Below, one piece after another: positions 15,962 through 53,575 of a DNA stretch of 64,000 bases. Under the pieces are notes generated by a model. That model was not told where the DNA came from and did no database searches. It saw only the letters and a list, made by a program, of their open reading frames with translations. The position numbers and the translations under genes are program-made. The stretch's first letter is position 1. Each line of letters begins with the position of its first letter. Source of the stretch: Akkermansiaceae bacterium (GTDB taxonomy: Bacteria > Gemmatimonadota > Gemmatimonadetes > Palauibacterales > Palauibacteraceae); the NCBI GenBank assembly GCA_964195715.1, contig CAXMRU010000057.1:5015-69014 (forward strand), given 5' to 3'.

Positions 15962-16104
15962 GCTGTGTCGACCCTTGAACGAGTGGCGGAGACTCGCGCT
16001 GCAGATTCGCAGGCTTGACCAAGTGAAAAAAAGGTACCTGAGGAAACGCGGGCGAGCAAGCAAGTTGCCCGTTCTGACGCGGCTCTCCGACGCGGCGAGA
16101 GCCC

Positions 16105-37350: not shown

Positions 37351-38274
37351 ATGCATACTACAGAGTCGAGCCCGGACGAGCGCCGGGTCGTCCATGTCGC
37401 GCACAGCCCGGACTCCGACGATGCCTTCATGTTTTACGGACTGGCATCGGGAGCCGTCGAGACAGGCGAGCTGAGCTTCGAACACGAGCTGGAAGGGATC
37501 CAGGAGCTCAACGAGCGGGCCATGCGAGGCGAGCTGGAAGTGACAGCGGTGTCGATACATGCATACGCCTACCTGACTGATCGCTACGTACTCCTTCCGC
37601 ACGGGGCGAGCATGGGCGAGGGGTATGGTCCATGCCTGGTCGGTCGGGAGCCGATGGACAGGGAGGCGATCGCGTCGTCCACGGTTGCGGTGCCGGGCGA
37701 ACTCACGTCGGCCTACCTGGCTCTCAAGCTATGGGAACCGCGGGTCCGGACCGTGGTGATGCCTTTTGACGCCATTCTCGAGGCGGTTCGGGACGGAACC
37801 GTCGAGTTGGGACTCATCATCCACGAGGGTCAGCTCACCTACGCGGACGAGAAGCTCGTCCTTCTGGAAGACCTGGGCCGATGGTGGAAGGAGGACACAG
37901 GCCTTCCTCTCCCCCTCGGCGGTAACGTGATCCGGCGTGACCTGGGTCCGGAGCTGATTCCTCGGATCTCCGATTACCTGCGCAGAAGCATCGCGTTCGC
38001 CCTCGACCACAGGGAGCAGGCGATGGACTACGCCATGGGCTTCGCGAGAGGTCTGGATCGGCAGACCGCGGATGATTTCGTGAGCATGTATGTGAACAGC
38101 CGAACCCTCGACTACGGTGCGGATGGCAGAGAAGCGGTGCGCCTGTTTCTGGCACGGGGGGTCGAGGCCGGGCTCGTACCTGGGCCCGTCGCAGTCGAGT
38201 TCGTGGACCAGGATGTCGCTGGAGAGAATGCGGCGCCAGGTCAGGTACCCGGTTCTCAGGTCACGCTCACGTAG
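37351..38274 (+). CDS. MqnA/MqnD-family protein (futalosine-pathway menaquinone biosynthesis, 1,4-dihydroxy-6-naphthoate synthase-like)
   Basis: N-terminus RVVHVAHSPDSDDAFMFYGLA resembles the MqnD start (GxSPCPNDTFxFYAL). Periplasmic-binding-protein-like fold. Start uncertain (ATGs at 37306 and 37351). Confidence 0.55.
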   Translation: MHTTESSPDERRVVHVAHSPDSDDAFMFYGLASGAVETGELSFEHELEGIQELNERAMRGELEVTAVSIHAYAYLTDRYVLLPHGASMGEGYGPCLVGREPMDREAIASSTVAVPGELTSAYLALKLWEPRVRTVVMPFDAILEAVRDGTVELGLIIHEGQLTYADEKLVLLEDLGRWWKEDTGLPLPLGGNVIRRDLGPELIPRISDYLRRSIAFALDHREQAMDYAMGFARGLDRQTADDFVSMYVNSRTLDYGADGREAVRLFLARGVEAGLVPGPVAVEFVDQDVAGENAAPGQVPGSQVTLT

Positions 38275-38720
38275 GCGTCGAGCTGTTCGATCCCGAGCCC
38301 CGCGATACGCCGGAGAGCCGATCGTCGGGTGACGAAGAGTTCCGAGTTCCCGGCGAGGCCCGTGGCTATGTGAATCGCGCGGGTCAGGCTTCCACCGACC
38401 TGCGCCTTCACCTGGGCCGCTTGCCCCGCGATCGTCGCGGACAGCGCCACGACCTCGAGTCCTGGTAGCGCCGACAGCAGCATCTCGACCCGCACCGCCG
38501 TCGAATCGTGCCCCGATCGATAGGGCTCCGCCAGAAGCTGATACACGCTGATGGCCGACGTTCGCGCTTCGAACTCTCCATCGCGTACGCCGCCGAGAAC
38601 CACCCGGGTGAGAGGCACGTACCTGGGATCAGCAGCCAGATGCAGTGCCAGCACGGCCGCATCAATGTACACGACTCCTGCGTCCCCCAGGGCCTTGCGA
38701 AGACCAGCGGTGTCACTCAC
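38256..38720 (-). CDS. vapC: PIN-domain toxin (VapC-like)
   Basis: 154 aa from a GTG that overlaps the antitoxin stop and is preceded by GGAGGTG. N-terminal VVYIDAAVL (conserved PIN Asp), 8-nt overlap with the upstream AbrB-type gene. Confidence 0.5.
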   Translation of the reverse strand: MSDTAGLRKALGDAGVVYIDAAVLALHLAADPRYVPLTRVVLGGVRDGEFEARTSAISVYQLLAEPYRSGHDSTAVRVEMLLSALPGLEVVALSATIAGQAAQVKAQVGGSLTRAIHIATGLAGNSELFVTRRSALRRIAGLGIEQLDAYVSVT

Positions 38721-38940
38721 CGCGCACCTCCGGCCATAGTTCGCCTGCCGTACCGGCCGAGGCAGCGAGGATTCCCTCCAGCTCGACGACCACGTCGCGA
38801 GGCTCTCTGCGCATTTCGATGACTCCGTCACCTGTGACGGTAACGAGAAGACGGTCTCCCGGCCTGAGACCCAGCGCCGCTCGAGCTTCGCGTGGCACGA
38901 CGATCTGGTGTTTGCTGCTCATTTTCACGGATGAGGACAT
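38713..38940 (-). CDS. vapB: AbrB/MazE/SpoVT-family antitoxin (VapB-like)
   Basis: 75 aa. GGAGG RBS 7 nt upstream of the ATG. SSKHQIVVPREARAALGLRPGDRLLV is a swapped-hairpin (AbrB-type) DNA-binding motif. Confidence 0.6.
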   Translation of the reverse strand: MSSSVKMSSKHQIVVPREARAALGLRPGDRLLVTVTGDGVIEMRREPRDVVVELEGILAASAGTAGELWPEVRGE

Positions 38941-39085
38941 ATCTCCGCCTCCGCTCGGGGGTCCTTTACGGAACAACTTTACGGCGGCACCGTCCCGGCG
39001 CGAAAGGGCTCGAGCGCTGACAGATTACATGAAAACCCTGGATGGCGGCGCAGGGACGCGCATCAACCAGCGACCCTCAAGGAGA

Positions 39086-40042
39086 TCAGAGGACCCGGTA
39101 CAGGAATGCTGCGTACCCCACGAGGAGGAGGGCGCCCTCCCACCGGTTCACCTTCTTCCCGGTGTAGGCAAGAGGTATGAGGGCAAGGCAGAAGATCATG
39201 GCAGGCACGACCTGAGTCGCGACCGTATCCGACGACAGCTGCAGGGGGCTGAGCAGGGCTGCCGTGCCGAGCACCAGGCCCAGGTTGAATATGTTCGACC
39301 CGATCACGTTGCCGATCGCGATGTCTCCCATGCCACGGGCCGCGGCAGCGATCGTGGACGCGAGCTCAGGGAGCGATGTTCCAACGGCCACCATGGTCGC
39401 ACCGATAACTTCCTCGGGGACCTGGTACGCGATGGCGATCTTCGTGGCCGACTCGATCATCCAGGAGGCGCCTGCGAGAAGGAGTGCCGTCCCGAAGGCT
39501 ACCCTCAGCCAGTTCACGTACGGTCGGCGTATGGTGTTTCTATCGTGAGACTTAGCGTCGATACGGGCCGCCTGAAACTGACCGGTCTCCGTCTCCGACT
39601 TCCCCCAGCGGATCAGGTACGCCATGTACAGGGCGAAGCCGCTGACGAGGATCAGGCCTTCCACGAAGCCCAGCACGGCGTTCGAGGCGAATACCATCAC
39701 CGCGGCGAGAACGACCACCATCAGGGGCGCCTCTCGCTGCAACAGCTTCCGGTGGACGCTGATAGGCCGGATCATCGCGCCGAGGCCCACGATCAGGCCC
39801 ACGTTCGCCACCGTCGATCCGAACACGTTGCCGACTGCGATCCCAGTCTGGCCACGCAGAACTGCACCCGTTGAGACAACTAGCTCGGGAGCCGACGTGC
39901 CGAAGGCAACGACGGTCAGGCCGACGAGCAATGGGCTCACGCCACGGTGCTCCGCGACCCGGGAAGCTCCGGTCACCAACCAGTCCGCCCCGAGGGTCAG
40001 GGCGGTCAAGCTGACCAGGAATAGAAGGGCCTCAACCACCAT
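39086..40042 (-). CDS. Ca2+/Na+ antiporter (CaCA family, YrbG-like)
   Basis: Two internal alpha-repeats with GTSAPEL and GTSLPELA signature motifs. About 10 TM helices. Confidence 0.85.
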   Translation of the reverse strand: MVVEALLFLVSLTALTLGADWLVTGASRVAEHRGVSPLLVGLTVVAFGTSAPELVVSTGAVLRGQTGIAVGNVFGSTVANVGLIVGLGAMIRPISVHRKLLQREAPLMVVVLAAVMVFASNAVLGFVEGLILVSGFALYMAYLIRWGKSETETGQFQAARIDAKSHDRNTIRRPYVNWLRVAFGTALLLAGASWMIESATKIAIAYQVPEEVIGATMVAVGTSLPELASTIAAAARGMGDIAIGNVIGSNIFNLGLVLGTAALLSPLQLSSDTVATQVVPAMIFCLALIPLAYTGKKVNRWEGALLLVGYAAFLYRVL

Positions 40043-40063
40043 GACGGTTCCTCACACCATTAA

Positions 40064-40124
40064 TGTGGAAAACCGTCCCCTCGGTCGACACACCACGGGC
40101 ACCCCTGTGGACAACTGTGGATAA
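40064..40124 (+). promoter_or_regulatory. cluster of three DnaA-box-like 9-mers
   Basis: TGTGGAAAA (40064-40072), TGTGGACAA (40106-40114) and a perfect TGTGGATAA (40116-40124), all in the same orientation. They lie in the promoter region of the antiporter gene, downstream of the bactofilin gene. Confidence 0.4.
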
Positions 40125-40178
40125 TTGGCCACTCGAAGTGCGAGTAAGCAAGTACAAGTCCGTGAACCGGTTACGACG

Positions 40179-40637
40179 TCATGTCAGCTGGCTCTGGACT
40201 GATCCGGCGTCGTGTTGAGCCGGCTTCTCCCCATGTTTGGTCGCGCCAACGGGCTTTTCCGCGCCCTGTCCACCCATGTGGAATTGTCCGTCCACCTGAC
40301 CACCTTCGTCGAGCTTGATTCTCCTGCTGCGAATGTCGCCTTGAATGCGGCACGAAGCCTGTAATTCGATGCGGCTGTCGGCGCTGATGCTGCCGTTGAC
40401 CCGACCGGCCACGATTGCATCCTGGGTGACGACGTCCCCCAGAACGACCCCTTCCTTGCCGATCACAACGCTCTTGGCCGCCTTGACCGAACCTTCGATC
40501 TGACCTTCGACACGAATTGTGCCGTCGCTCGTGCAATCCCCGACTACTTTCATGCCGGGCCCGATGATCGATACGACGTCAGCGACGTCCCTCGTCGAGG
40601 CGTCCGTCCGGTTCCTCGTCTTCGTCATCTCGCTCAT
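40179..40637 (-). CDS. bactofilin (DUF583 polymer-forming cytoskeletal protein)
   Basis: Start MSEMTK, with AAAGGA 5-10 nt upstream. Core repeat-like beta-helix sequence (SIIGPGMKVVGDCTSDGTIRVEGQIEGSVKAAKSVVIGKEGVVLGDVV...). Pro/Gly-rich basic C-tail. Confidence 0.75.
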   Translation of the reverse strand: MSEMTKTRNRTDASTRDVADVVSIIGPGMKVVGDCTSDGTIRVEGQIEGSVKAAKSVVIGKEGVVLGDVVTQDAIVAGRVNGSISADSRIELQASCRIQGDIRSRRIKLDEGGQVDGQFHMGGQGAEKPVGATKHGEKPAQHDAGSVQSQLT

Positions 40638-40705
40638 TCCTTTCACTGTCCCTTCCGGGTCGCCGCGGCTCGACCCACCTTTATCAGGTCGCTGAAGAAC
40701 CCTGT

Positions 40706-41491
40706 TCAGGTCCCTTCCACAAGATAATCGAGCGGGTCCACGGGTACGCCCTGTCGCTCGATCTCGACGTGCAGGTGCGGAGCGGTCGATCGGCCGCTGT
40801 TTCCCGACAGGGCAATCACCTCTCCTACCTCCACCGAGTCGCCCGGGCCTACGAACAGCCATGAGTTGTGCGCGTACAAGCTGCTCAGTTCATCATCGTG
40901 TGCGACTCGAACGTATAGTCCGTACTCCGGGTCGTCCCCCGTCTCGGAGACCCGCCCGGTACGAGACGTGCGCACGTACGAACCCACCGGCACGGCGATG
41001 TCCACGCCCACATGCCCGTCCGGCGGAGCGGCAGTCGTGTCCCCGAAATTCCGCGTCACGAAGCCCTGTTCGACCACGGGCCACACAAAGCCCGCGCTGG
41101 CTTCCTGTTCACTTACGCGGCGCTCGCTCGCTTCCTTCTCAGACAATGGAGGGAGCAGAATGTCACGTTGCGACCTTCCAAGCTCTCCTCCCATCACCAC
41201 TCTCAGCTGCCGGTACTCGGCCTCGAGGCGCTCAACACGCTCTGCTACGACCCTCATCGCCGCATTTTCACGCTGCAAGTCGGAGACCTCCGCTTCCAGA
41301 GCCGCAATTTCGTCCCCGGAAGCCAGGTTGCCTACCCACCGGCCGGCGCCGAAGAAGGCTGCGCCGAGGGCGGTCAACAGCACCGTTGCCAGCAGTGTCA
41401 CCTTCGCGCGCGACAGCGCCACTGTGCGGGACTGCACTTCTCCTTCCCGCACCACGATCAGCGTCCAGCGCCGGCGTCCTTCCGCGTTCAT
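40706..41491 (-). CDS. M23 (LytM) peptidase with N-terminal TM helix and coiled coil
   Basis: TM segment TLLATVLLTALGAAFFGAG. Coiled coil. M23 motifs HVGVDIAVPVGSYV and SGRSTAPHLHVEI. ATGA overlap with the parB gene's stop. Confidence 0.75.
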   Translation of the reverse strand: MNAEGRRRWTLIVVREGEVQSRTVALSRAKVTLLATVLLTALGAAFFGAGRWVGNLASGDEIAALEAEVSDLQRENAAMRVVAERVERLEAEYRQLRVVMGGELGRSQRDILLPPLSEKEASERRVSEQEASAGFVWPVVEQGFVTRNFGDTTAAPPDGHVGVDIAVPVGSYVRTSRTGRVSETGDDPEYGLYVRVAHDDELSSLYAHNSWLFVGPGDSVEVGEVIALSGNSGRSTAPHLHVEIERQGVPVDPLDYLVEGT

Positions 41492-42387
41492 CGTTCTCCG
41501 AACAGCTCGCCGGCGTCAGCCGCGTCGAGAAGTGCGCGCGTCACGCGTTCGAATTCGTCCGGATCATGAAACGGAATTCGGATTTCGCCCTGGTTGCGCG
41601 CGCGCAGCGTCACCTTGACGTTCGTCCCATACGCGCGGGACAGCAGCACGGCCGCCTTGCGGGCGACTGGGTCTTCGCGCGCCGGTCCTCGCTTACCGCC
41701 CGGGGGTCCTCGCTTCTTGCCAGTTCGTGCCCGGGACTCGGTCTCGCGTACCGACAGCCCCTTCGCTGCAACTTCCCGCGCGAGCGCTACCTGATCCGCC
41801 TCTCCCTCAACCGACAGAATGGCCCGGGCGTGCCCGGCGGTGATCGCCCCTTCGCTCAGCAGGTCACGAACTGCAGCGGGAAGCGTGAGAAGCCGCAGCG
41901 CGTTCGCCACGGTCGAGCGGTCCCGTCCCACTCGCTTCGCCGCTTCTTTCTGAGTGAGACCGAAACCGTCGATCAACTGCTGGTAACCCACGGCCTCCTC
42001 GAGCGGGCCCAGATCCTCCCTCTGGAGGTTCTCCACGAGTGCCACGACCAGCATCTGTTCGTCGCTGAGTGGCCTGACTATCGTGGGCGCCTTTTCCCAA
42101 CCGAGGCGCGTGAGCACCCGCCACCTACGCTCGCCCGCCACCAGCTCGAAATCGAGGCCGGCCGGCCGGACTACCAGGGGCTGCAGCAAGCCGTTTTCAC
42201 GGATCGACGCCTCGAGCTCGTCGAGGGCCTCGCCCTCGAATTGCCTGCGCGGCTGGAACGGGTTGGGTCGGATACGGCCTACCTCGATCTCCCGGATCGG
42301 CATTTTGCCGGACGCCGGCTCCTCGAGGTATTCCCCGAGAAGGGCTCCGAGTCCTTTGCCGAGACGCCGTGCTTCAGGTTTGGGCAA
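41488..42387 (-). CDS. parB: chromosome partitioning protein ParB/Spo0J
   Basis: TTG start preceded by AAGGGGG. It overlaps the parA stop. ParB box I/II (RLGKGLGALL; PIREIEVGRIRPNPFQPRR; GLLQPLVVRP; GERRWRV). HTH. 299 aa. Confidence 0.85.
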   Translation of the reverse strand: MPKPEARRLGKGLGALLGEYLEEPASGKMPIREIEVGRIRPNPFQPRRQFEGEALDELEASIRENGLLQPLVVRPAGLDFELVAGERRWRVLTRLGWEKAPTIVRPLSDEQMLVVALVENLQREDLGPLEEAVGYQQLIDGFGLTQKEAAKRVGRDRSTVANALRLLTLPAAVRDLLSEGAITAGHARAILSVEGEADQVALAREVAAKGLSVRETESRARTGKKRGPPGGKRGPAREDPVARKAAVLLSRAYGTNVKVTLRARNQGEIRIPFHDPDEFERVTRALLDAADAGELFGER

Positions 42388-43171
42388 CGACGGCCCCCTT
42401 CCTCTCTTCGTCCCGGCGCACGATCTCCGACGCCAGGCTGAGGTATCCCCGGGCGCCGGTCGACAGCACATCGTACAGCGCGATCGGCTGTCCGAAGCTC
42501 GGCGCCTCGGCGAGTCGAACATTCCGGGGAATCCAGGTCTTGAAAACCTTCGCCCCGAAGTACTCCTCCGCCTCTCCCTTCACCTGCTTAGACAGGTTGA
42601 GGCGCGAGTCGAACATCGTCAGTAGCACCCCTTCAATGCCCAGTTCCGGATTGATGCTCCGCTGAACGATCCGCACCGTGTTCAGCAACTGGCTCAGCCC
42701 CTCGAGCGCGTAGAACTCGCACTGGATAGGGATCAGTACGGTGTCTGCCGCTACAAGGGCGTTGAGCGTGAGCAGGCCGAGCGAAGGAGGAGAGTCGATG
42801 AGGACGTACTCGTATCGGTCCCGGATCGGCTCCATGATCTCACGCAGTACGCGCTCCCGCCGTGGCCGCTCGATCAATTCGACCTCAGCTCCGGCAAGAT
42901 CTCGGCTCGCCGGGACCACATCCAGCATGGGGAAGTGGATCGCCGGTCGAATTGCGTCTTCCAAGGCCTGCCCATCCACGAGACAGTCGTACACATCCGG
43001 CGCGCCGCTTTCTCTGGCGATCCCGAGGCCGCTGGATGCGTTGCCCTGCGGATCACAATCGATGACAAGCGTTTTCTTCTCCGCGATCGCCAGGGAAGCA
43101 CCCAGGTTGATGGCGGTGGTGGTCTTGCCGACTCCGCCCTTCTGGTTAGCTATGGCGATGACTCGCGACAT
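42374..43171 (-). CDS. parA: chromosome partitioning ATPase ParA/Soj
   Basis: Deviant Walker A KGGVGKTT. ParA family throughout. Confidence 0.9.
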   Translation of the reverse strand: MSRVIAIANQKGGVGKTTTAINLGASLAIAEKKTLVIDCDPQGNASSGLGIARESGAPDVYDCLVDGQALEDAIRPAIHFPMLDVVPASRDLAGAEVELIERPRRERVLREIMEPIRDRYEYVLIDSPPSLGLLTLNALVAADTVLIPIQCEFYALEGLSQLLNTVRIVQRSINPELGIEGVLLTMFDSRLNLSKQVKGEAEEYFGAKVFKTWIPRNVRLAEAPSFGQPIALYDVLSTGARGYLSLASEIVRRDEERKGAVVAQT

Positions 43172-43327
43172 CTGTACTCCGCACTAAAACGTTGTTATTA
43201 AACAAGTTACCGCTACGTCTATGTCGGGGCAGCGTCGCCTCGAGAACCTCAACCCGCTCGGAGTGGATCTTCCTGTTCCACGGGGCGAGGAATATACGGC
43301 GGGTCCGTGTGTGAGCCAAGAAAACAA

Positions 43328-43343
43328 TGTTGCACGTGAAACA
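43328..43343. promoter_or_regulatory. parS site (ParB-binding centromere), copy 1
   Basis: TGTTGCACGTGAAACA matches the parS consensus TGTTNCACGTGAAACA. It is immediately upstream of parA. Confidence 0.7.
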
Positions 43344-43365
43344 TCTTGCGACTCCGCCGTTCCTG

Positions 43366-43381
43366 TGTTGCACGTGAAACA
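43366..43381. promoter_or_regulatory. parS site, copy 2
   Basis: Identical 16-mer TGTTGCACGTGAAACA, 38 bp from copy 1. Confidence 0.7.
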
Positions 43382-43388
43382 ACTGCAA

Positions 43389-45281
43389 TCAAGTGATCTC
43401 GCAGTCTCCCGGGACCATCCTCCGTCCGCGCTTCCGTACCTCCACGAGAAGGTTCTGAAGATCGGAGGGAGACACTCCTGGAATGCGTGCCGCCTGACCC
43501 ATGGTCTGCGGCCGAACCGTTGACAGTTTCTGCCGAGCTTCAAGTGACAACGACCGAAAATCCAGGTATGGGGCATCCGGAGGCAGCAGCAAACCCTCCC
43601 GCTCGGCCAGAGCAGTCGCTCGTTCTTCCTCGCGACGTATGTAGCCGTCGTACTTCACCTCCATCTCAACGACCGCGAGCGCATCAAGCCCCAGGCCCGG
43701 ATCACGAACGGGACCGTCTTCCGCCACCAGCGCCCGAAGCGTCACCTCTGGCCGGCGTACGAGACGGATCAGAGGTTTTCGCTCGGTAAGCGGGCTGCTA
43801 CTGCGGTCAACCAGCCACTCGTTGGCTTCGGCAGGATCAATCCGCTCCTCTCGAATCCACTTACGGGTTCGCTCGAGGTCCTCCAGATGCCCGTCCAGAC
43901 GCACCAACTCCTCCTCCGACAGCAGACCAAGCCGCTCCGCTACCGGGCCCATGCGTAACAGCGCATTGTCCTGTCTGAGCATGAGCCGGAATTCAGCTCT
44001 TGACGTGAACAGTCGATATGGCTCGTCTACTCCACGAGTCACGAGGTCGTCCACGAGGACTCCGATGTACGCTTCGTCCCGCCCGGGTACCCACGGTTCC
44101 CGATCAAGCGCCGCGTGGGCTGCATTCACCCCTGCGACCACGCCCTGTGCGGCGGCCTCTTCGTAACCCGTCGTGCCGTTCACTTGACCCGCCAGGTACA
44201 GTCCATGCAAGCACTTGAGCGCCAGTGTTCGCCCGAGCTGCAAAGGAGGGAAGAAGTCGTACTCGATTGCATAACCGGGTTGAGTCATACGGGCGTTCTC
44301 CAGGCCCGGCACCGCACGCAGGAATTCACGTTGAACATCCGGGGGCAACGACGTGGAGAGACCGTTTACGTACAGCTCTGAGGTTTCCAACCCTTCCGGT
44401 TCGAGAAATACCTGGTGTCCACTCGCCTCAGGGAACTTGACGATCTTGTCTTCGATCGACGGGCAGTACCGCGGACCCTGTGAAGCGAGCACCCCTCCGT
44501 ACAGAGCCGATCGATCCAGGTTGGATTGGACAATCTCCTTTACTTCCTCACCCGCGCGCGCTATCCAGCATGGCCGCCTCTCGAGTCCGCCGCTCACCTC
44601 CCAGTGCGAGAACCTGTATCCGTCCTCCTCGCCGTCCTGCCGCTCCAGGCGGTCAAGGTCCACACTCCGGCCATCCACTCGGGGTGGCGTGCCTGTCTTG
44701 AAGCGTCGCGCCTCCAGCCCCAGGTCGCGCATCTGATCCGCCAGCGCCACGGAAGGAGCATCTCCCGCCCTACCTGCAGCAAACTCCCTCTCGACACCGA
44801 TCCGAATGCTGCCACGCAGGAACGTGCCGGCCGTGAGCACGACGCTGCGTGCTGCGAACTCACTGCCGTCCGCACATACGACTCCCGAGACCCGCTCTCC
44901 TTCCATGCGCAGCACGGAAACAGTCCCCTGGAACATCTCCAGCCCGCGCTGCTCCTCCAGCAGCGAGCGGATCTCTCGCGAATAGAGACCCCTGTCGCAC
45001 TGGGCCCTCGGCGCCCAGACCGCCGGCCCCTTGCTGCGATTCAGCATTCGGAAGTGCAGCGTGGTACGATCAGCGGCTCGTCCCATAAGTCCGCCCAGCG
45101 CATCTACTTCCCGCACCACGGTTCCCTTCGCAACACCGCCGATCGCCGGGTTGCAGGACATCTGTCCGACCCGTGCAAGGAACGACGTCACGAGCAGCGT
45201 CTTCGCGCCGGCCCTCGCGGACGCATTCGCAGCCTCCGAGCCCGCGTGGCCCCCGCCGATGACGATCACGTCGTAGTACAT
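43389..45281 (-). CDS. mnmG: tRNA uridine-5-carboxymethylaminomethyl modification enzyme MnmG (GidA)
   Basis: Start MYYDVIVIGGGHAGSEAA (FAD Rossmann), with AGGAGAGGA RBS. The ORF's upstream extension was rejected. 631 aa. Confidence 0.9.
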   Translation of the reverse strand: MYYDVIVIGGGHAGSEAANASARAGAKTLLVTSFLARVGQMSCNPAIGGVAKGTVVREVDALGGLMGRAADRTTLHFRMLNRSKGPAVWAPRAQCDRGLYSREIRSLLEEQRGLEMFQGTVSVLRMEGERVSGVVCADGSEFAARSVVLTAGTFLRGSIRIGVEREFAAGRAGDAPSVALADQMRDLGLEARRFKTGTPPRVDGRSVDLDRLERQDGEEDGYRFSHWEVSGGLERRPCWIARAGEEVKEIVQSNLDRSALYGGVLASQGPRYCPSIEDKIVKFPEASGHQVFLEPEGLETSELYVNGLSTSLPPDVQREFLRAVPGLENARMTQPGYAIEYDFFPPLQLGRTLALKCLHGLYLAGQVNGTTGYEEAAAQGVVAGVNAAHAALDREPWVPGRDEAYIGVLVDDLVTRGVDEPYRLFTSRAEFRLMLRQDNALLRMGPVAERLGLLSEEELVRLDGHLEDLERTRKWIREERIDPAEANEWLVDRSSSPLTERKPLIRLVRRPEVTLRALVAEDGPVRDPGLGLDALAVVEMEVKYDGYIRREEERATALAEREGLLLPPDAPYLDFRSLSLEARQKLSTVRPQTMGQAARIPGVSPSDLQNLLVEVRKRGRRMVPGDCEIT

Positions 45282-45760: not shown

Positions 45761-46558
45761 ATGATAGAGCTGCCAGACGTCGAGCGAATGATCGACGCCT
45801 TTGCCGGATACGCCACCGGGAAGACCGTGTCCGTTGTCCTCATTGACGACAAGGAGACCGTCGACCTGGATGCCGATCAGGCCGCCGAGCACATCCAGGG
45901 CCATGCCATCGACACCGTCGAACGGCGCGGAAAGTACGTCGTTCTCCGTTTCCGCTCCGAAGTAAGCCTTATCTTCGACATGGGATCCGACGGCGAAGTG
46001 TATCTCGAGTCGCAGACGGCGCCGCCCCGTGAAACTAGCAAGATCCGGCTTCAGTTCGCCGCCGGCCGCGAGCTTCGCTTCGCCTCCAGTGGCACCAACG
46101 GCGATGTTCATCTCCTTGAAGGTGAGGACCTTTCGGGTTTCGGCCTCCTCAACAATCTCGGCCTCGATCCGCTCAGCGAGGAACTCACGCCGGACCGATT
46201 CATACACATGGCACGCCAGCGTACACGTAGCACTCTGAAGGGTCTCCTGATGAACGAGGAGGTCGTGGCGGGCATCGGAAACGAGTACGCGGACGAGATC
46301 TGCTTCCAGGCCAGTATCCGGCCCGACTGCAAGGTCGGGGACCTGTCCGACGAGCAGCTCGCCCGGATTCAGAAGTACCTGAGGCGTGTGCTGCGCCGGG
46401 CGACTCTGCACTGGCAGGCGGCGCATTCCGACCCGGGGTGGCTCATCAACCGGCGGCATCCGGGGCATACGTGTCCCCGATGCATGAGCGAGCTGGAATC
46501 CCTGAGTGTAGTGGGAAAGCGGACGTATCTCTGTCCCAGGTGCCAGCGAGCAGCCTGA
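45761..46558 (+). CDS. Fpg/Nei-family DNA glycosylase (H2TH + zinc finger), atypical N-terminus
   Basis: N-terminal IELPDVE. H2TH GIGNEYADEICFQASIRP. C4 zinc finger CPRC...CPRC. Residue 2 is Ile, not the canonical catalytic Pro. Confidence 0.8.
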   Translation: MIELPDVERMIDAFAGYATGKTVSVVLIDDKETVDLDADQAAEHIQGHAIDTVERRGKYVVLRFRSEVSLIFDMGSDGEVYLESQTAPPRETSKIRLQFAAGRELRFASSGTNGDVHLLEGEDLSGFGLLNNLGLDPLSEELTPDRFIHMARQRTRSTLKGLLMNEEVVAGIGNEYADEICFQASIRPDCKVGDLSDEQLARIQKYLRRVLRRATLHWQAAHSDPGWLINRRHPGHTCPRCMSELESLSVVGKRTYLCPRCQRAA

Positions 46559-46577: not shown

Positions 46578-47942
46578 CTACTTGCCCACGCAGAATGAGC
46601 TGAACACGACGTCCAGAACGTCGTCGGTGGTAACAGTTCCGAGCAGATCTTCCAGGGCGAGTGTGGCATCCTGAACGTGTGTGCCGGCGACTTCGCTCGG
46701 CAGCCCGCCGACGCGGGCTGCCTGGAAGGCCTCCACGTCCTCCCAGGCCTTCGTCAGACACCTCACCTGGCGCTCCCTCGTGACGATCGGAACTTCCTCT
46801 TCTCCTCGGACTCCCGAGAAAGCTCTCTGCAGAAGGGCTTCCCGCAATTCCGGTATCCCTTCGCCCGTGTGAGCGGAGATGCACACCTCCATCTCCAACC
46901 CGACGGTCGTCGCTTTCCCGCAATCCGGGTGTAGGTCGGCCTTCGTGCGCAGTACGAGGATGCGTGATCCGTCCGTTCGCCCGTATTCGGCAAGGAAATC
47001 CGTCTCGTCAGCTCCTGGTTGCCTTCCCGCCTCCACGCACAGCAACACGATGTCCGCCCGATCCAGGTAGCTCCGCGCTACTTCGATTCCCATCTTCGCA
47101 ACGCGTCCCGGGTCTTCTCCAAGACCCGCTGTGTCGACCACGCGAAACGGATACCCTGCAACGCTCACGAGAGCCTCGATCGCGTCCCTCGTGGTGCCGG
47201 GTTCCTCTGTCACGATCGCGCGCTCGAAACCCAGTAACGCGTTGAAAAGACTAGACTTACCTGCGTTGGGCCTGCCCGCCATCACGGTGAGCGCACCGTC
47301 GCGGAGAAGTTCCCCTTCGGGCACGAGGTCGAGCATGCGGGCGAGTTGATCACTGAGCTGGATCGCGGTCCCGTCGATTCGCTCTGCCGGAACCGGTCCG
47401 TCGTCCTCCTCGGGAAAGTCTATGTCGTAGGCGAGCAGGGCCTGAAGCTCAAGCAGTCCTTGCCGCAGGTCTTCGATCCGTCGCGACAGACCCCGCTCCA
47501 ACTGAAAGAGGGCCGCTCGATGCATGGCTGGTGATCGGGCTTCGATCAGATCCAGCGTCGCTTCGACCTGCATGAGGTCCATCTTGCCGTTGAGGAAGGC
47601 CCGACGAGTAAACTCTCCGGGCTCCGCCGGCCGCGACCCGGCCGCACACACCGCCTCGAGCACGAGCTGGGGAGCCAGGGCCCCGCCATGGCAGCTGAGC
47701 TCCAGCATGTCTTCTCCCGTATAGGACGCGGGCGCCTTGAAACGCACGGCGACCACTTCGTCTACGGGAAGCCCCGTCCCCGGATGACGAACGGTCGCGT
47801 GCTGCGTCACCCGAGGCTCTGCAGGGGGAAGCCCAAGCTCCGTGGCGATGGCAAACGAGCCCGGGCCGCTGACACGGACCACCGCGAGCGCACTCCTCCC
47901 AGGAGGCGTCGAGATGGCCGCGATCGTGTTCTGGTGAGGCAT
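46578..47942 (-). CDS. mnmE: tRNA modification GTPase MnmE (TrmE)
   Basis: N-terminal IAAISTPPGRSALAVVRVSG, G-domain GRPNAGKSSLFNAL, C-terminal CIGK-like ...FCVGK. Confidence 0.9.
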   Translation of the reverse strand: MPHQNTIAAISTPPGRSALAVVRVSGPGSFAIATELGLPPAEPRVTQHATVRHPGTGLPVDEVVAVRFKAPASYTGEDMLELSCHGGALAPQLVLEAVCAAGSRPAEPGEFTRRAFLNGKMDLMQVEATLDLIEARSPAMHRAALFQLERGLSRRIEDLRQGLLELQALLAYDIDFPEEDDGPVPAERIDGTAIQLSDQLARMLDLVPEGELLRDGALTVMAGRPNAGKSSLFNALLGFERAIVTEEPGTTRDAIEALVSVAGYPFRVVDTAGLGEDPGRVAKMGIEVARSYLDRADIVLLCVEAGRQPGADETDFLAEYGRTDGSRILVLRTKADLHPDCGKATTVGLEMEVCISAHTGEGIPELREALLQRAFSGVRGEEEVPIVTRERQVRCLTKAWEDVEAFQAARVGGLPSEVAGTHVQDATLALEDLLGTVTTDDVLDVVFSSFCVGK

Positions 47943-47989: not shown

Positions 47990-49768
47990 CTATCCGCCGC
48001 CCCGATCGTTCTTCTTGCTGACCGTCTTGTTCTGGTCCGCCTTGCGCTTCGCCGCCATCCGCTCCTTCGACAGGTACAACTGCTGCGGCAGAGAGGCCAG
48101 GTTGCTCGTGGCGTAGTACAGGTTCAGTCCCGACGGGAAGTTGGCGAACATAACGGTGAACACGAGCGGCATAACGTACGTCATCATCTTCATCTGCGGG
48201 TTCGCCTCCATCCCGCGCTGCCCGATCCAGGAGAGCAGGAACATCGAGGCGCCCATGAGGAGCGGAATGATGTAGAGCGGATCCTTGAGCGACAGATCAG
48301 GAAGCCACAGGAACGGCACGCCCCGGAGTTCGATCGTGCTCCGGAAAACGAAGAACAGAGCGAACAGGATGGGCATCGGGACTAGCATGGGAAGACACCC
48401 GCCTAGCGGGTTCACGTTGTGCTCCTTGTACAGCTTCATCATCTCGGACTGGAGCTTCTGCGGCTCGTCCTTGTACTTTGCCTGCAGCTCCTTCATCAGA
48501 GGCTGCACCTGCATCTGCGCGAGCTGCGCGCGCATCGACTTCTGGTACAGAGGGAACAGCACCACCCGCATCGCTACGCCGAAAATTATGAGCACCCATC
48601 CGTAGGCGATTCCCAGGAATCCGTGCATCCATGTCAGGACGACCATTACGATCCCGACGAGAGGCCGGATAATCGGCCGCATCCACCGCCAGCCGTACGG
48701 GTTGACGTTCTCGAGGTCCCGGGAGTGTCCGACGGCCTCCAACCGCCGGTACTCCTGCGGTCCGAGGTAGGCCTGAAAAGCGAACCCCTCGGTACCGGCC
48801 GGGACCGGGAGCGAGGTTACCATTCCCGCGGTGTTCTCGGCTGGCTCGCCGATCGCGAGGAACCCCCCGAATTGCGGCCCCTCCTCCTGAGACACGAGCG
48901 CGATCAGGAAGTACTTGTTCCTCACGGCAACCCAGTCGAACGGGCCTCCCTCCGCCGCCTGCACATCGCCCGGATGCACTTTGCTCAGGTTCACCGATCG
49001 GATGGCGCCGCCCTGGCCGCGCACTACGTACGCGAGCTGACGGTAGTCGTCCACCTCGTCCTTTTCGTTGGTCTTGAGGCCGTGCCCGAGCGAGGTGAGG
49101 ATGGAATAGCCCCGGTCGCCGATGCCCTGGACACGCCCGGACACGTCCACGATGTACGTGTCCAGCGCGAAGCCATACGTCACGATCAGTTCGGCCGCAC
49201 CCGACGGGAACGGGTATCGGAAGACGATCGAGTCCCTCGGATTGTTCTCAGTGAGGGTCAGGTCCGTGCGGTCGACGGTGAAGGTCTGACCATCGACACG
49301 CACCGTATCTCCCCCGACCGTGATCCTGTAGCCTAACACGCGGTCGCCGTCGCGGATGAGCTGGGCGCGAGGATCACCATCCCCATTATCCACGTACGAC
49401 GCATACTTCAGGAGTTCCGCCGATATCAGCGCCGCTCCCCGGGTCGAGAACCGGAGCTTGAGCAGGTCGGTGGTAACCGTGACCGTGGCCGCTTCTGGCT
49501 CCGACAGGTCCACGCGTTCCTGTCCATCCCCCTGTTCACCCGCCACCGCTCCGGCGAGCCCCCGTCCGCCGTCTTCCACGGGAAGTGTCGGCTCCGCACC
49601 GCCCGGGTTCAAATCCCTTTCGAGACCCTCGACCGGAGATTCTTCAGCCACCAGGGCCGAGTCCGGCGCCACGGAACCCAGCGGCGGCTCCGGACTCGGG
49701 AACAGCACGTTGCTCAGGAAGATCACCCCGATCGTGAGGACCACGGCCAGGACTACTCGCTTCTCCAT
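47990..49768 (-). CDS. yidC: membrane protein insertase YidC
   Basis: Start MEKRVVLAVVLTIGVIF, with GAGG RBS. Large periplasmic domain, then a conserved 5-TM core (…MKELQAKYKDEPQKLQSEMMKLYKEHNVNPLGGCLPMLVPMPILFALF…). The ORF's upstream extension was rejected. Confidence 0.85.
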   Translation of the reverse strand: MEKRVVLAVVLTIGVIFLSNVLFPSPEPPLGSVAPDSALVAEESPVEGLERDLNPGGAEPTLPVEDGGRGLAGAVAGEQGDGQERVDLSEPEAATVTVTTDLLKLRFSTRGAALISAELLKYASYVDNGDGDPRAQLIRDGDRVLGYRITVGGDTVRVDGQTFTVDRTDLTLTENNPRDSIVFRYPFPSGAAELIVTYGFALDTYIVDVSGRVQGIGDRGYSILTSLGHGLKTNEKDEVDDYRQLAYVVRGQGGAIRSVNLSKVHPGDVQAAEGGPFDWVAVRNKYFLIALVSQEEGPQFGGFLAIGEPAENTAGMVTSLPVPAGTEGFAFQAYLGPQEYRRLEAVGHSRDLENVNPYGWRWMRPIIRPLVGIVMVVLTWMHGFLGIAYGWVLIIFGVAMRVVLFPLYQKSMRAQLAQMQVQPLMKELQAKYKDEPQKLQSEMMKLYKEHNVNPLGGCLPMLVPMPILFALFFVFRSTIELRGVPFLWLPDLSLKDPLYIIPLLMGASMFLLSWIGQRGMEANPQMKMMTYVMPLVFTVMFANFPSGLNLYYATSNLASLPQQLYLSKERMAAKRKADQNKTVSKKNDRGGG

Positions 49769-50028
49769 CTGTCCTCTGTCAGGTATGGTGTTGCCACCCC
49801 GTGCACTCCTCCCTCGGCCTCTGGCACCGGGTCGATCCCGTGTCCGCCGAACGGGTGGCACCTGCCCACGCGCCTGACTGCCAGCCAGGAGCCTCGCGCC
49901 GCGCCGTGACGCTCGACCGCGATGCGCGCGTACTCCGAGCAGCTCGGGGTGTAACGACAGCTCGCCGGGAACAACGGGGAAAGGCCCGCCTGATACGCTC
50001 GGATCCAGAACAGGAGGAAGTGCTTCAT
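49753..50028 (-). CDS. yidD: membrane protein insertion efficiency factor YidD
   Basis: LIRAYQAGLSPLFPASCRYTPSCSEYARIAVERHG is the YidD signature. ATGA-type overlap with rnpA. Confidence 0.85.
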   Translation of the reverse strand: MKHFLLFWIRAYQAGLSPLFPASCRYTPSCSEYARIAVERHGAARGSWLAVRRVGRCHPFGGHGIDPVPEAEGGVHGVATPYLTEDRWRSE

Positions 50029-50384
50029 TCAGCCGCCGTGCACCGACCGAGCGCACTCCGCAACGCGTCGAATCCCAGCTCGTATGCTCCCGGCCGTGCC
50101 CGAATCAGGATTTCAGGCGGTGGCGTCTCGTCTCGAGCCCCCGGAAGCCAGGTCGTGCGAACGCACTCCCTCAACCGCCGTTTGAGACGGTTACGCTCCA
50201 CAATCGTATGTCCGTAGCGAGGAACGACGATGCCCGCGCGGGCCCGGTGCGTCCGCGAGACCGCGCGATACACCTCCAGCGGCCCGCAACGCCGCCGCGA
50301 ACCCTGTTTAACGAGGGTCCGGATCTCGGGCCCGCGTCGAAGGCGGGCCGACCTTGGATACCGAAAACGGCGTCCGTCACCCAA
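50025..50384 (-). CDS. rnpA: ribonuclease P protein component RnpA
   Basis: RnpA core (LRRGPEIRTL..., GIVVPRYGHTIVERNRLKRRLRE, LIRARPGA). There is no in-frame ATG after the rpmH stop. Proposed TTG start at 50384; the start is uncertain. Confidence 0.6.
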   Translation of the reverse strand: MGDGRRFRYPRSARLRRGPEIRTLVKQGSRRRCGPLEVYRAVSRTHRARAGIVVPRYGHTIVERNRLKRRLRECVRTTWLPGARDETPPPEILIRARPGAYELGFDALRSALGRCTAAE

Positions 50385-50779: not shown

Positions 50780-52171
50780 ATGGAGCTGACGGCTACCGAA
50801 GTCTGGTCTTCGATCATTACCGCCGCGCGGGACGTGCTGCCTGAGCAGACGTTTCGTACGTGGCTTGCATCTACCGAGGCGGTCGGCCTGTCCGACGACA
50901 CGCTGGTCGTCGCCGCCCCGACCCGCTTCGCGGTAGAGTGGATTGAGGACAAGTACGGAGATCTGCTCCGGGACCTGGCCAGCAGGTCGATGGGCAGGCC
51001 CCTCGAGTTGCGCTTCGAGCACCACGGTACTGGCAACCGACTCGTGTTTCCAGAGATCGTAGCGGATAGCGGCGCTCTCGTGCCGGAAACCCCGGCGCTT
51101 CAACCGACAGCAAAACCGGACGCGCGTACGGCTGTCGAGGGAGCGAAACATGCGGGGCTGAACCAGCGCTACACATTTGAGCGGTTCGTGATCGGTGGGA
51201 ACAGCCAGCTCGCGGCTGCGGCATGCCGCGGAGTTGCCGACTCGCCGGCGCAGCTCTACAACCCGTTGTTCATCTACGGCGATACGGGACTCGGCAAGAC
51301 CCACCTGATGCACGCGATCGGCCACGAAATCCTCGGGCGATCGCCCGAGACCCAGATCGCGTACGTCCCATCCGAACAATTCACGAACGAGATGATCTCG
51401 GCGATCAGGAGCGGGCGCACTCCCGAGTTCCGGCAGCGATATCGGCGTATCGACATCCTTCTCGTGGACGACGTTCACTTCCTCGGGAACAAGGAAGGAA
51501 CACAGGAAGAGTTCTTCCACACATTCAATTCGCTATACGACGCTCACCGGCAGATCGTCATCACGAGCGATCGCCCTCCTCAAGAGATTCCCGGTCTCCA
51601 GGAGCGGTTGGTCTCCCGGTTCGAGTGGGGACTGGTCACCGACATCAAACCGCCGGACTTTGAGACGCGCGTCGCGATCCTGCAGAAGAAGGCCACTGAA
51701 GACCGGCTCACGTTGGACGAGGAAGTCATAGAATTTATTGCCCGCAACCGGAAGTCCTCCGTCAGACAGCTCGAGGGCGCCGTCATCAAGCTCCTGGCCT
51801 ACAGTTCACTTACCCGCCGCGAGATCAACCTTGACCTGGCACGTGAGGCGCTTGGACCACGGCTCGAGGATGAGATTGGCCTACGCGTCACAGCGGTCGA
51901 GATTCGGCAGAAGACGGCACAAGCGTGGGGCGTAACGGTAGAAAACCTCGTATCCAAGCGGCGGACGAAGCCCCTCACTGTTCCACGTCAGGTAGCCATG
52001 TACCTGATCAAGACGACCCTGGATCTCCCTTATACGGAAATCGGTGTGCTGTTCGGTGGCAGAGATCACTCGACTGTGATCCACTCCGTTAATAAGGTCG
52101 AAGCGGACATGGCCTCGAATCCGGAGTTTCGAGCACGAGTCCGGCGGCTACAGGACGAGCTTATACGCTGA
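50780..52171 (+). CDS. dnaA: chromosomal replication initiator DnaA
   Basis: Start MELTATEVWSSI (DnaA domain I). AAA+ Walker A GDTGLGKTHL, sensor motifs, C-terminal DNA-binding domain (RQVAMYLIK...). 463 aa. Confidence 0.9.
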   Translation: MELTATEVWSSIITAARDVLPEQTFRTWLASTEAVGLSDDTLVVAAPTRFAVEWIEDKYGDLLRDLASRSMGRPLELRFEHHGTGNRLVFPEIVADSGALVPETPALQPTAKPDARTAVEGAKHAGLNQRYTFERFVIGGNSQLAAAACRGVADSPAQLYNPLFIYGDTGLGKTHLMHAIGHEILGRSPETQIAYVPSEQFTNEMISAIRSGRTPEFRQRYRRIDILLVDDVHFLGNKEGTQEEFFHTFNSLYDAHRQIVITSDRPPQEIPGLQERLVSRFEWGLVTDIKPPDFETRVAILQKKATEDRLTLDEEVIEFIARNRKSSVRQLEGAVIKLLAYSSLTRREINLDLAREALGPRLEDEIGLRVTAVEIRQKTAQAWGVTVENLVSKRRTKPLTVPRQVAMYLIKTTLDLPYTEIGVLFGGRDHSTVIHSVNKVEADMASNPEFRARVRRLQDELIR

Positions 52172-52471: not shown

Positions 52472-53575
52472 ATGAAGCTTTCCGTAACACGCGACAGCCT
52501 GCACACCGGAATGGGAGCCGTTTCTGCTACCATACCGACGAAGACCACCTTGCCTGTCCTCTCGAACATCCTGCTCGACGCAAAGGATGGAAAACTCACG
52601 CTGAGCGGTACGGACCTCGATATTTCTGTGTCTGTTTCGATCGATGCGGAAATTGAAGTGGAGGGATCGGTGACGGTACCGGCGAAGAAGTTTGCTGAGA
52701 TCGCCCGAGAACTCCCGGCAGCACCCGTGCATATCCAGGCGGATGGAGTGGAAATCCGCATCGAGAGCGGTAAGAGCCGTTTCAAGCTGTTCGGGCTGCC
52801 GACAGAGGAGTTCCCGAGCTTCCCGGAGGTTGATTCCGGAGAGGCCTGGACGATGCAGGCAACGGACCTGCACGAGCTGATCAGTAAGACGTCGTTCGCT
52901 GCTTCCACCGAAGAAAGTCGGCCCATCCTGAACGGTGTACTCTGGCAGCTCGGGAAAGGGAAGGCGTCGATGGTTGCAACGAACGGTCACCGGCTGGCGC
53001 GCCTGACCGTTCCCCTGGAAGGTGGAGGTGCGCCGGAAGCTGATCTGATTGTTCCACCGAAGGCTCTACAGCAGGTAAGCCGGCTATTTCAGAAAGAGGG
53101 AGAGATCGCAGTATCGAAATCTCGCAACCACCTCGCTTTTCGAACGGACAGCCGCGCGGTATTCACTCGCTTGATAGAGGGTCCGTATCCGAACTATCAG
53201 CAGGTAATTCCGGCCGATAACGATAAGAAGGCAATAGTGAGCCGGGATGGCCTCGCCGCCGCAATTCGTCGTATGGCTGTCGTAGCAAGTGACCAGACGC
53301 ACCGCGTCCGCATGAGCTTCAGCGAGGGAAGTCTCTCCTTCCGCGTCCAGACTCCGGATCTCGGAGAGGCCGAGGAGGAGATGGTCGTCGACTACGAGGG
53401 CGAGAAGATCGAGATCGGGTTTAACGCCAATTACTTGTTGGAGGTGCTCCGATACATGCCGGAGGAAGATGTCCTGGTGGAATTCAAGGCTCCAGAAAGA
53501 GCCGCCACCTTCAAGCCGGCGAGTGGAAAGCTTGACTACCTCTGTCTGGTGATGCCCCTGCGGCTGCTGGACTGA
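52472..53575 (+). CDS. dnaN: DNA polymerase III beta subunit (sliding clamp)
   Basis: 367 aa. Three-domain beta-clamp pattern (MKLSVTRDSL..., LLDAKDGKLTLSGTDLDISV...). Confidence 0.9.
   Translation: MKLSVTRDSLHTGMGAVSATIPTKTTLPVLSNILLDAKDGKLTLSGTDLDISVSVSIDAEIEVEGSVTVPAKKFAEIARELPAAPVHIQADGVEIRIESGKSRFKLFGLPTEEFPSFPEVDSGEAWTMQATDLHELISKTSFAASTEESRPILNGVLWQLGKGKASMVATNGHRLARLTVPLEGGGAPEADLIVPPKALQQVSRLFQKEGEIAVSKSRNHLAFRTDSRAVFTRLIEGPYPNYQQVIPADNDKKAIVSRDGLAAAIRRMAVVASDQTHRVRMSFSEGSLSFRVQTPDLGEAEEEMVVDYEGEKIEIGFNANYLLEVLRYMPEEDVLVEFKAPERAATFKPASGKLDYLCLVMPLRLLD

Follow-up and report, generated by a model that had tools for sequence, protein, structure and literature searches.

A probable origin-proximal operon of parAB with M23 peptidase and bactofilin genes in Gemmatimonadota

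A stretch of 64,000 nucleotides of contig CAXMRU010000057.1 (assembly GCA_964195715.1; hereafter the window, in whose coordinates all positions are given) contained four genes in a row on the minus strand, which encode ParA, ParB, an M23-family peptidase, and a bactofilin (Table 1). The closest relatives of the window were metagenome-assembled genomes (MAGs) labelled Gemmatimonadota, including Candidatus Benthicola (order Palauibacterales). ParABS systems and bactofilin-M23 pairs are each well studied; their union in one translationally coupled, phylum-wide operon was not found described in the literature searched.

ParA matched the Pfam families AAA_31 (2.8e-64) and CbiA (7.5e-29), carried the deviant Walker A motif KGGVGKT at residues 11-17, and was the product of the sole ParA-like open reading frame (ORF) of the window. 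ParB matched ParB_N (2e-32) and HTH_ParB (1.7e-35), with a weak match to ParB_C (0.003); among the NCBIfam models, TIGR00180 scored above its cutoff (8.7e-51) and the Noc model below its own. Two motifs could be read from the ParB sequence, LGKGLGALL for interaction with ParA and GERRWR for CTP binding. Both proteins had ordinary lengths and motifs, and neither contained an extra domain able to dock a bactofilin. The start of parB is most plausibly the TTG at 42387, which is preceded by a Shine-Dalgarno sequence (GGAAGGGGG) and produces a 14-nt overlap with parA, whose stop codon occupies 42376-42374; the TTG and its Shine-Dalgarno sequence were kept in 10/10 close relatives compared. Two parS matches, each with one mismatch, were observed in the window, where chance alone would give 0.07, and both lie upstream of parA at about 7.5 kb from dnaA. 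An initial annotation of this DNA, which had placed parA and parB in a row on the minus strand, with a TTG start of parB overlapping the parA stop and two parS sites next to the operon, was thus confirmed on each of these points, and Pfam confirmed the assignment of both proteins. With the parS sites, parA and parB make up a chromosome partition system of the ordinary kind, close to the origin.

The arrangement of the four genes supports well their co-transcription. The ATG of the M23 gene at 41491 overlaps the TGA of parB as ATGA (4 nt), as had been annotated; neither a terminator nor a separate promoter, which had been named as signs against the proposed module, lies between the two genes. 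The M23 stop codon and the bactofilin start (at 40628, see below) are separated by a 77-nt gap, in which a GC-rich hairpin was considered and rejected as a terminator: it had no U-tract and was no stabler than shuffled sequence (z = 0.31). A minus-strand scan from parA to the bactofilin stop detected neither promoter-like nor terminator-like sites. The only promoter-like site that a simple scan returned within 39000-44000 was a sigma-70-type candidate at 43319-43291, upstream of parA. The GTATATT at its -10 position, the TTGG of its -35 hexamer, and both parS sites were conserved in nine aligned relatives, and the remaining spacer drifted. The -35 hexamer and the second parS site are 9 nt apart, an arrangement that suggests autoregulation by ParB.

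The M23 protein (261 aa) matched Pfam Peptidase_M23 (4.8e-26) and comprises a predicted beta-hairpin (about residues 9-24), a transmembrane (TM) helix (31-49), a coiled coil (about 55-99), a linker, and the M23 domain (140-261). The TM helix had a Kyte-Doolittle peak of 2.06, and residues 1-30 were net positive, with seven lysines and arginines vs. three aspartates and glutamates. These features match those expected of a bitopic, N-in protein, which would have a short cytoplasmic N terminus, one TM helix, and a periplasmic coiled coil. An AlphaFold2 model built from an alignment of database proteins (mean predicted local distance difference test, pLDDT, 72) contained a continuous helix over residues 28-99 (pLDDT 82-92) formed by the TM helix and the coiled coil, followed by a disordered linker and a confident M23 domain; the TM segment falls inside this helix, in agreement with the earlier description of an M23 endopeptidase with a TM helix and a coiled coil. 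The zinc-ligand and catalytic set H160, D164, H208, H239, and H241 (HxxxD...H...HxH) was invariant in alignments of 20 and 34 sequences. The prediction is therefore of a catalytically active peptidase, in contrast to the activators EnvC and NlpD. Matches in the PDB to ShyA, Csd1 (5J1L, E 4.9e-12), and LytM covered the M23 domain alone, and those to EnvC covered the coiled coil plus the domain. A second M23-domain ORF was present in the window at 16078-17247 (plus strand); its profile match was limited to the catalytic domain (positions 145-252, E 6e-20), and it had no adjacent bactofilin gene.

The bactofilin matched Pfam PF04519 (4.7e-25) over the full-length core (1-97 of 98) and consists of a beta-helical DUF583 core with disordered tails; its matches in the PDB included the Thermus bactofilin (6RIA, 4.8e-9) and Caulobacter BacA (2N3D, 1.2e-8). 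Its domain and strand agree with its earlier placement as the fourth gene, but the start of the ORF had to be corrected from 40862, to which the open frame extends back, to 40628. The internal ATG at 40628 (MTKTRNR..., 149 aa) is most likely the start because it is favoured by the alignment of orthologues and by a conserved GAAAGGA Shine-Dalgarno sequence; an alternative ATG at 40637 would give the N terminus MSEMTKT. Most database orthologues were called at 147-149 aa. The canonical membrane-targeting sequence MFSKxxK was not found in the bactofilin from either start, nor in the orthologues of the phylum, whose N termini (MTKTRNR, MSKRETV, MARKEDR, MAKQAAN, and MARKGPT) have no hydrophobic residue at position 2. 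The membrane-targeting sequence of BacA is MFSKQAKS, of which F2, K4, and K7 are critical (PMC12448750). Such a sequence is common in bactofilins, although not obligatory, and among the parB-linked bactofilins from outside Gemmatimonadota an MF or MKF start that resembles the canonical peptide is the usual one. Because the bactofilins of the phylum have no membrane-targeting peptide of the usual kind, the tail of the M23 protein probably serves also as their membrane anchor.

To assess conservation of the gene order, genomes were scanned with ParB as the seed, each species being represented by one genome; the 49 loci obtained were analysed with tblastn and with hidden Markov models built from orthologues. 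The order parA-parB-M23 was present in 18/18 Gemmatimonadota genome loci that reached far enough, and a bactofilin gene followed in all 17 that were not cut off; the same order was recovered by look-ups from further M23 and bactofilin homologues (L050-L053, L135, and L139), so that it was found in every Gemmatimonadota locus examined (about 27 in all). The comparison across the phylum that had been proposed as a check on the operon therefore showed the linkage to be kept in every relative sampled, among which Longimicrobiia were not knowingly represented. The bactofilin gene was adjacent to the M23 gene and co-oriented with it in all relatives. Synteny held down to identities of 44% for ParB, about 36% for the M23 protein, and 29% for the bactofilin, and parB and the M23 gene overlapped as ATGA (GTGA in one) in 17/17 genome loci with a whole M23 gene; over all Gemmatimonadota loci examined, the overlap was present in nearly every one. 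The flanks varied: upstream, mnmG was present in some lineages and yidC directly in others, and downstream there was a Na/Ca exchanger gene, a convergent atp operon (atpC), or a gene for NIF3 or deoxyhypusine synthase. Homologue searches seeded with a divergent M23 protein and with the bactofilin returned only Gemmatimonadota. In a Gemmatimonadaceae-like metagenome locus (L055:998-1483), a 161-aa orthologue of the M23 protein kept the hairpin, TM helix, and coiled coil without the M23 domain, and was still located between parB (1-nt overlap) and the bactofilin gene. This protein suggests that the anchor/adaptor half may have a role that is independent of peptidoglycan cleavage.

The pairing of a bactofilin with an M23 protein is of a known kind, as the initial annotation had noted. 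In the BacA-LmdC systems of Hyphomonas neptunium and Rhodospirillum rubrum, the bactofilin and M23 genes are likewise adjacent and co-oriented, and LmdC resembles the M23 protein described here in being bitopic: the TM helix is followed in the periplasm by a coiled coil and a catalytically intact C-terminal M23 domain. On the cytoplasmic side LmdC has a short beta-hairpin, the counterpart of which is predicted with low confidence in the protein described here. The beta-hairpin of LmdC is the BacA-binding site (PMC10945521). In its architecture, the M23 protein of the operon thus matches the published description of LmdC, a type known to pair with bactofilins. On the other hand, it is shorter (261 aa, compared with about 380-460 aa for the alphaproteobacterial entries in the table of Pöhl et al.), the bactofilin differs from BacA in the absence of an MFSK-type peptide, and BacA-LmdC of H. 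neptunium forms its own bicistronic operon, whereas the pair described here follows parAB and is coupled to it in translation. The 226 species for which Pöhl et al. (2024; PMC10945521) listed bactofilin and M23 genes side by side include no Gemmatimonadota. In Helicobacter pylori, the gene for the bactofilin CcmA also lies beside that for an M23 endopeptidase that shapes peptidoglycan (Csd1), but Csd1 does not possess the N-terminal half with hairpin, TM helix, and coiled coil, the CcmA-Csd1 link was reported as indirect, and there is no linkage to parAB.

Because the M23 protein has the LmdC layout and an adjacent bactofilin, the last two genes can be read as a BacA-LmdC-type pair. The best-supported reading of the locus, which we regard as moderately probable, is that a wall-shaping pair of this type shares the operon of an ordinary ParABS system. 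The four genes would form one transcription unit driven by the conserved sigma-70-type promoter beside the two parS sites. By analogy with Hyphomonas and Rhodospirillum, the bactofilin would polymerise on the cytoplasmic side and may bind the N-terminal beta-hairpin of the single-pass M23 protein; the bound bactofilin would then fix where the periplasmic M23 domain, on its coiled-coil stalk, cuts peptidoglycan cross-links. Coupling behind parB would let the wall pair share timing, gene dosage, and rough stoichiometry with the segregation proteins, and the whole operon may be under the control of ParB bound to the parS sites next to the promoter. Contact of the pair with ParA or ParB is not required by this reading.

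Several points weigh against it. Co-transcription was deduced from gene anatomy, and the 77-nt gap before the bactofilin gene could hide a promoter missed by a simple scan. The likeness to LmdC is one of layout, and the beta-hairpin (AlphaFold2 strands 9-15 and 18-24) was modelled at low confidence (pLDDT 43-61). The strand-turn-strand pattern of the N terminus was conserved in all homologues, including a Bacillota protein described below (L118). Tight coupling is not universal, as about 110 nt separate the M23 gene from parB in one lineage of Gemmatimonadaceae (L061/L135), and the L055 lineage, which has no M23 domain, indicates that peptidoglycan cleavage is not always the point of the pairing. 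Finally, that the translation of a membrane peptidase is coupled to that of a DNA-binding protein, and stays so across relatives, is unusual for co-regulation alone and could mean a closer functional tie than this reading supposes.

Outside the phylum, the first 6 kb downstream of parB contained no M23 gene in any of the 30 genome loci (mostly Alphaproteobacteria), one of which (L025, described below) had a bactofilin gene. A metagenome scan with a deliberately broad ParB profile gave at least 594 loci, of which the 80 most similar to the query were taken; this sample was ranked by similarity to the query ParB, and its fractions are not population estimates. Bactofilin was the next or next-but-one gene after parB in 10/61 of these loci with at least 600 nt downstream, and an LmdC-like gene was present in 5/61. 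The bactofilin gene came directly after parB, with no M23 gene between, in L059, L068, L070, L080, L088, L089, L113, L123, and L133; cluster look-ups assigned L059, L068, and L133 to Acidobacteriota (the first two to Blastocatellia, L133 to Candidatus Acidoferrales), and the other six were unclassified. Two further loci belonged to Gemmatimonadaceae (L056) and to an unclassified organism (L071, GC 0.50). A low-GC locus from Bacillota (Candidatus Fermentithermobacillaceae; L118:4238-8647) had the order parA-parB-alanine racemase (alr)-M23-bactofilin, and its 331-aa M23 protein contained the hairpin and the TM helix. This locus is a second and seemingly independent instance of parAB extended by a set of peptidoglycan genes. 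The succession of parB and a bactofilin gene recurred in at least four phyla, and a search of the literature returned no description of a general parB-bactofilin neighbourhood, nor of bactofilins in Gemmatimonadota or Acidobacteria, beyond Myxococcus. The tendency of bactofilin genes to follow parB beyond Gemmatimonadota is apparently undescribed.

Two observations concern individual loci outside the phylum. In a MAG classified only as 'bacterium' (L025:319-4389), the bactofilin gene was located 2.6 kb downstream of parB, behind two genes with no Pfam hits, one co-oriented with parB and one opposite, and was followed by the genes for ATP-synthase b and delta. The 309-aa ParB of L133 (2444-3373) fell in a 90%-identity cluster of 995 members, whose representative is, like most of them, a bactofilin about 140 aa long; the grouping may be an artefact of clustering or may hint at ParB-bactofilin fusion or read-through proteins in Acidobacteriota.

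The closer tie would be an integrated one, in which a bactofilin polymer tethered by the M23 protein acts as a landmark that captures ParB-parS or sequesters ParA, in a role like that of BacNOP-PadC, PopZ/TipN, or HubP, and physically couples origin positioning to local peptidoglycan hydrolysis. This is possible but unlikely. It is favoured by the phylum-wide linkage and the start-stop overlap of parB and the M23 gene, both conserved despite rearranged flanks, by the recurrence of parB-bactofilin in other phyla (including Acidobacteriota and Bacillota), and by the absence of the usual membrane-targeting peptide from the bactofilins of the phylum. It is also favoured by the cell biology of Gemmatimonadota: according to a 2024 study (PMC11271474), these bacteria have no Min, MipZ, or PomZ, divide by FtsZ-based fission with an unusual placement of the division plane, and bear polar spherical appendages that are not buds. 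Bactofilin and M23 proteins were not mentioned in that study. Gene adjacency alone, however, cannot show protein contact, and the absence of an extra bactofilin-docking domain in ParA and ParB speaks against the integrated reading.

Comparison with Myxococcus xanthus bears on the same question from both sides. Bactofilins organise ParABS in this species (PMC5703909), which supports a connection of the kind proposed, but the BacNOP-PadC system needs PadC, a ParB-fold adaptor co-encoded with bacNOP. The window was found to encode neither a ParB-fold adaptor like PadC nor another ParA or ParB, which counts against the integrated reading; its only match to the ParB profile was parB, and the operon contained no further gene. 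The initial annotation had cited bacNOP-padC as lying downstream of parAB in Myxococcus; this is incorrect, since the gene immediately downstream is bacM, whose product acts only in cell shape, and bacNOP-padC is a separate operon (Lin et al., 2017; PMC5703909). The genes parA-parB-bacM-MXAN_7474 are co-transcribed, and BacM is dispensable for segregation (Iniesta, 2014; PMC3899335). This unit (see also Koch, 2011) shares with the locus described here a bactofilin gene co-transcribed behind parAB near the origin and an extra gene for an envelope protein; it differs in that bacM comes straight after parB and is followed by a putative lipoprotein gene, whereas in the window the M23 gene separates parB from the bactofilin gene. 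BacM is the only parAB-linked bactofilin studied experimentally, and the real Myxococcus precedent therefore argues against an obligatory role in segregation. The combined module for segregation and polar wall remodelling that had been put forward for this operon is a hypothesis compatible with the sequence, which does not establish it, and none of the present results bears on 'polar'.

A further extension would make the bactofilin, held by the M23 hairpin, the missing landmark of the phylum, which docks ParB-parS or ParA, thereby positions the origin, and directs peptidoglycan hydrolysis at the same spot, giving rise to the polar spheres and/or fixing the unusual plane of division. On this view, the recurrence of parB with a bactofilin gene in Acidobacteriota, Myxococcota, and Bacillota would be a trace of a bactofilin-ParABS partnership both ancient and widespread, with BacNOP-PadC as one specialised offshoot. 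We consider this distinctly unlikely. Because the known division-site systems are missing from Gemmatimonadota and their polar spheres are unexplained, the operon is an obvious first target for Gemmatimonas genetics. A notable share of the parB genes in the similarity-ranked sample precede a bactofilin gene, and why bactofilins and ParABS go together, a question of long standing, is therefore testable by comparative genomics and across several phyla.

The operon might instead couple division, and not cell shape, to segregation, with the coiled-coil M23 protein acting at the septum or in daughter separation in the manner of EnvC, DipM, and NlpD, and the bactofilin marking the site. In favour of this reading, division-site placement in the phylum is unexplained, the EnvC chains in the PDB aligned over the coiled coil and the LytM domain (query residues 62-257, E 6e-11), and the weak NCBIfam matches to the M23 protein include DipM, EnvC, and NlpD. 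All of the NCBIfam matches were sub-threshold, however, and scored far below the cutoffs (67.8 vs. 740 for DipM). EnvC and NlpD are degenerate activators, in contrast to a protein with a fully invariant catalytic set; there is no adjacent ftsEX, and the combination of N-terminal hairpin, TM helix, and adjacent bactofilin fits LmdC and not EnvC. A division role therefore appears very unlikely. Neutral synteny, in which the pair merely sits behind parAB in the generally conserved origin-proximal block rpmH-rnpA-yidC-mnmE-mnmG-parAB and has no functional or regulatory meaning, is highly improbable, as the four genes stay together while both flanks are reshuffled, the 4-nt overlap persists down to the lowest ParB and bactofilin identities given above, and similar linkages exist in unrelated phyla.

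The gap behind the bactofilin gene contained the best DnaA-box cluster of the window, made up of two boxes in tandem, whose starts are 10 bp apart, and a third box 42 nt on. No DnaA box with two or fewer mismatches was found in the rpmH-dnaA gap, and the dnaA-dnaN gap had only four two-mismatch boxes. The pair was invariant amid variable flanks and was located just after the bactofilin gene in L001-L014, L018, L022, L026, L048, L050, L052, and L053; it was absent in the L061/L135/L055 lineage, and L014 had about eight box-like sites. It was also kept in deep branches in which the next gene is a convergent atpC, and there it cannot act as a promoter element. A chromosomal origin (oriC) was rejected as the leading reading of the cluster: there are two or three boxes in 136 bp, the GC-skew minimum is located elsewhere, the boxes are followed by neither a TAG/TAA DnaA-trio run nor an AT-rich unwinding element, and the genes on both sides are transcribed towards the cluster. 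Its possible roles are those of a DnaA titration or regulatory site or of an oriC of unusual form, and it may be no part of the parAB operon.

In the window, the cumulative GC skew reached its minimum at about 50-52 kb, beside dnaA. The operon had been described as lying beside the origin; it is indeed origin-proximal, but not at the origin, as parA is about 8 kb from this minimum and dnaA. The gene rsmG (gidB) was absent between mnmG and parA, compared with the common order mnmG-rsmG-parAB, and the pair of parS sites and the promoter occupy this gap. An Rfam search and a repeat scan returned nothing relevant. The toxin-antitoxin pair of the MazE and PIN types at the downstream end of the mapped region was syntenic also in two relatives (L136 and L139).

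Table 1. Features of the four-gene operon and its surroundings, in window coordinates.
Feature	Position	Strand	Details
dnaN	52472-53575	+	
dnaA	about 50783-52171	+	
rpmH, rnpA, yidD	between dnaA and yidC	-	
yidC	47990-50056	-	
mnmE	46578-47942	-	
fpg	45761-46558	+	
mnmG	43389 to about 45275	-	
217-bp gap	43172-43388		between mnmG and parA; contains parS sites and promoter
parS site 1	43366-43381		TGTTGCACGTGAAACA; 1 mismatch to consensus TGTTTCACGTGAAACA; kept in relatives
parS site 2	43328-43343		TGTTGCACGTGAAACA; 1 mismatch to consensus TGTTTCACGTGAAACA; ends 9 nt upstream of -35 hexamer
sigma-70-type promoter candidate	43291-43319	-	TTGGCT, 17 nt, TATATT; promoter scan and conservation
parA	42374-43171	-	265 aa; Pfam
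parB	41488-42387	-	299 aa; TTG start; Pfam
M23 peptidase	40706-41491	-	261 aa; Pfam
bactofilin	40179-40628	-	149 aa; Pfam; probable start, from orthologues and conserved Shine-Dalgarno sequence
136-bp gap	40043-40178		3' of bactofilin; contains DnaA boxes
three DnaA boxes	40064-40124	-	TTATCCACA, g, TTGTCCACA, then TTTTCCACA 42 nt on; just 3' of bactofilin
Na/Ca exchanger	39086-40042	-	
MazE-type antitoxin / PIN-domain toxin pair	38256-38976	-	downstream of Na/Ca exchanger

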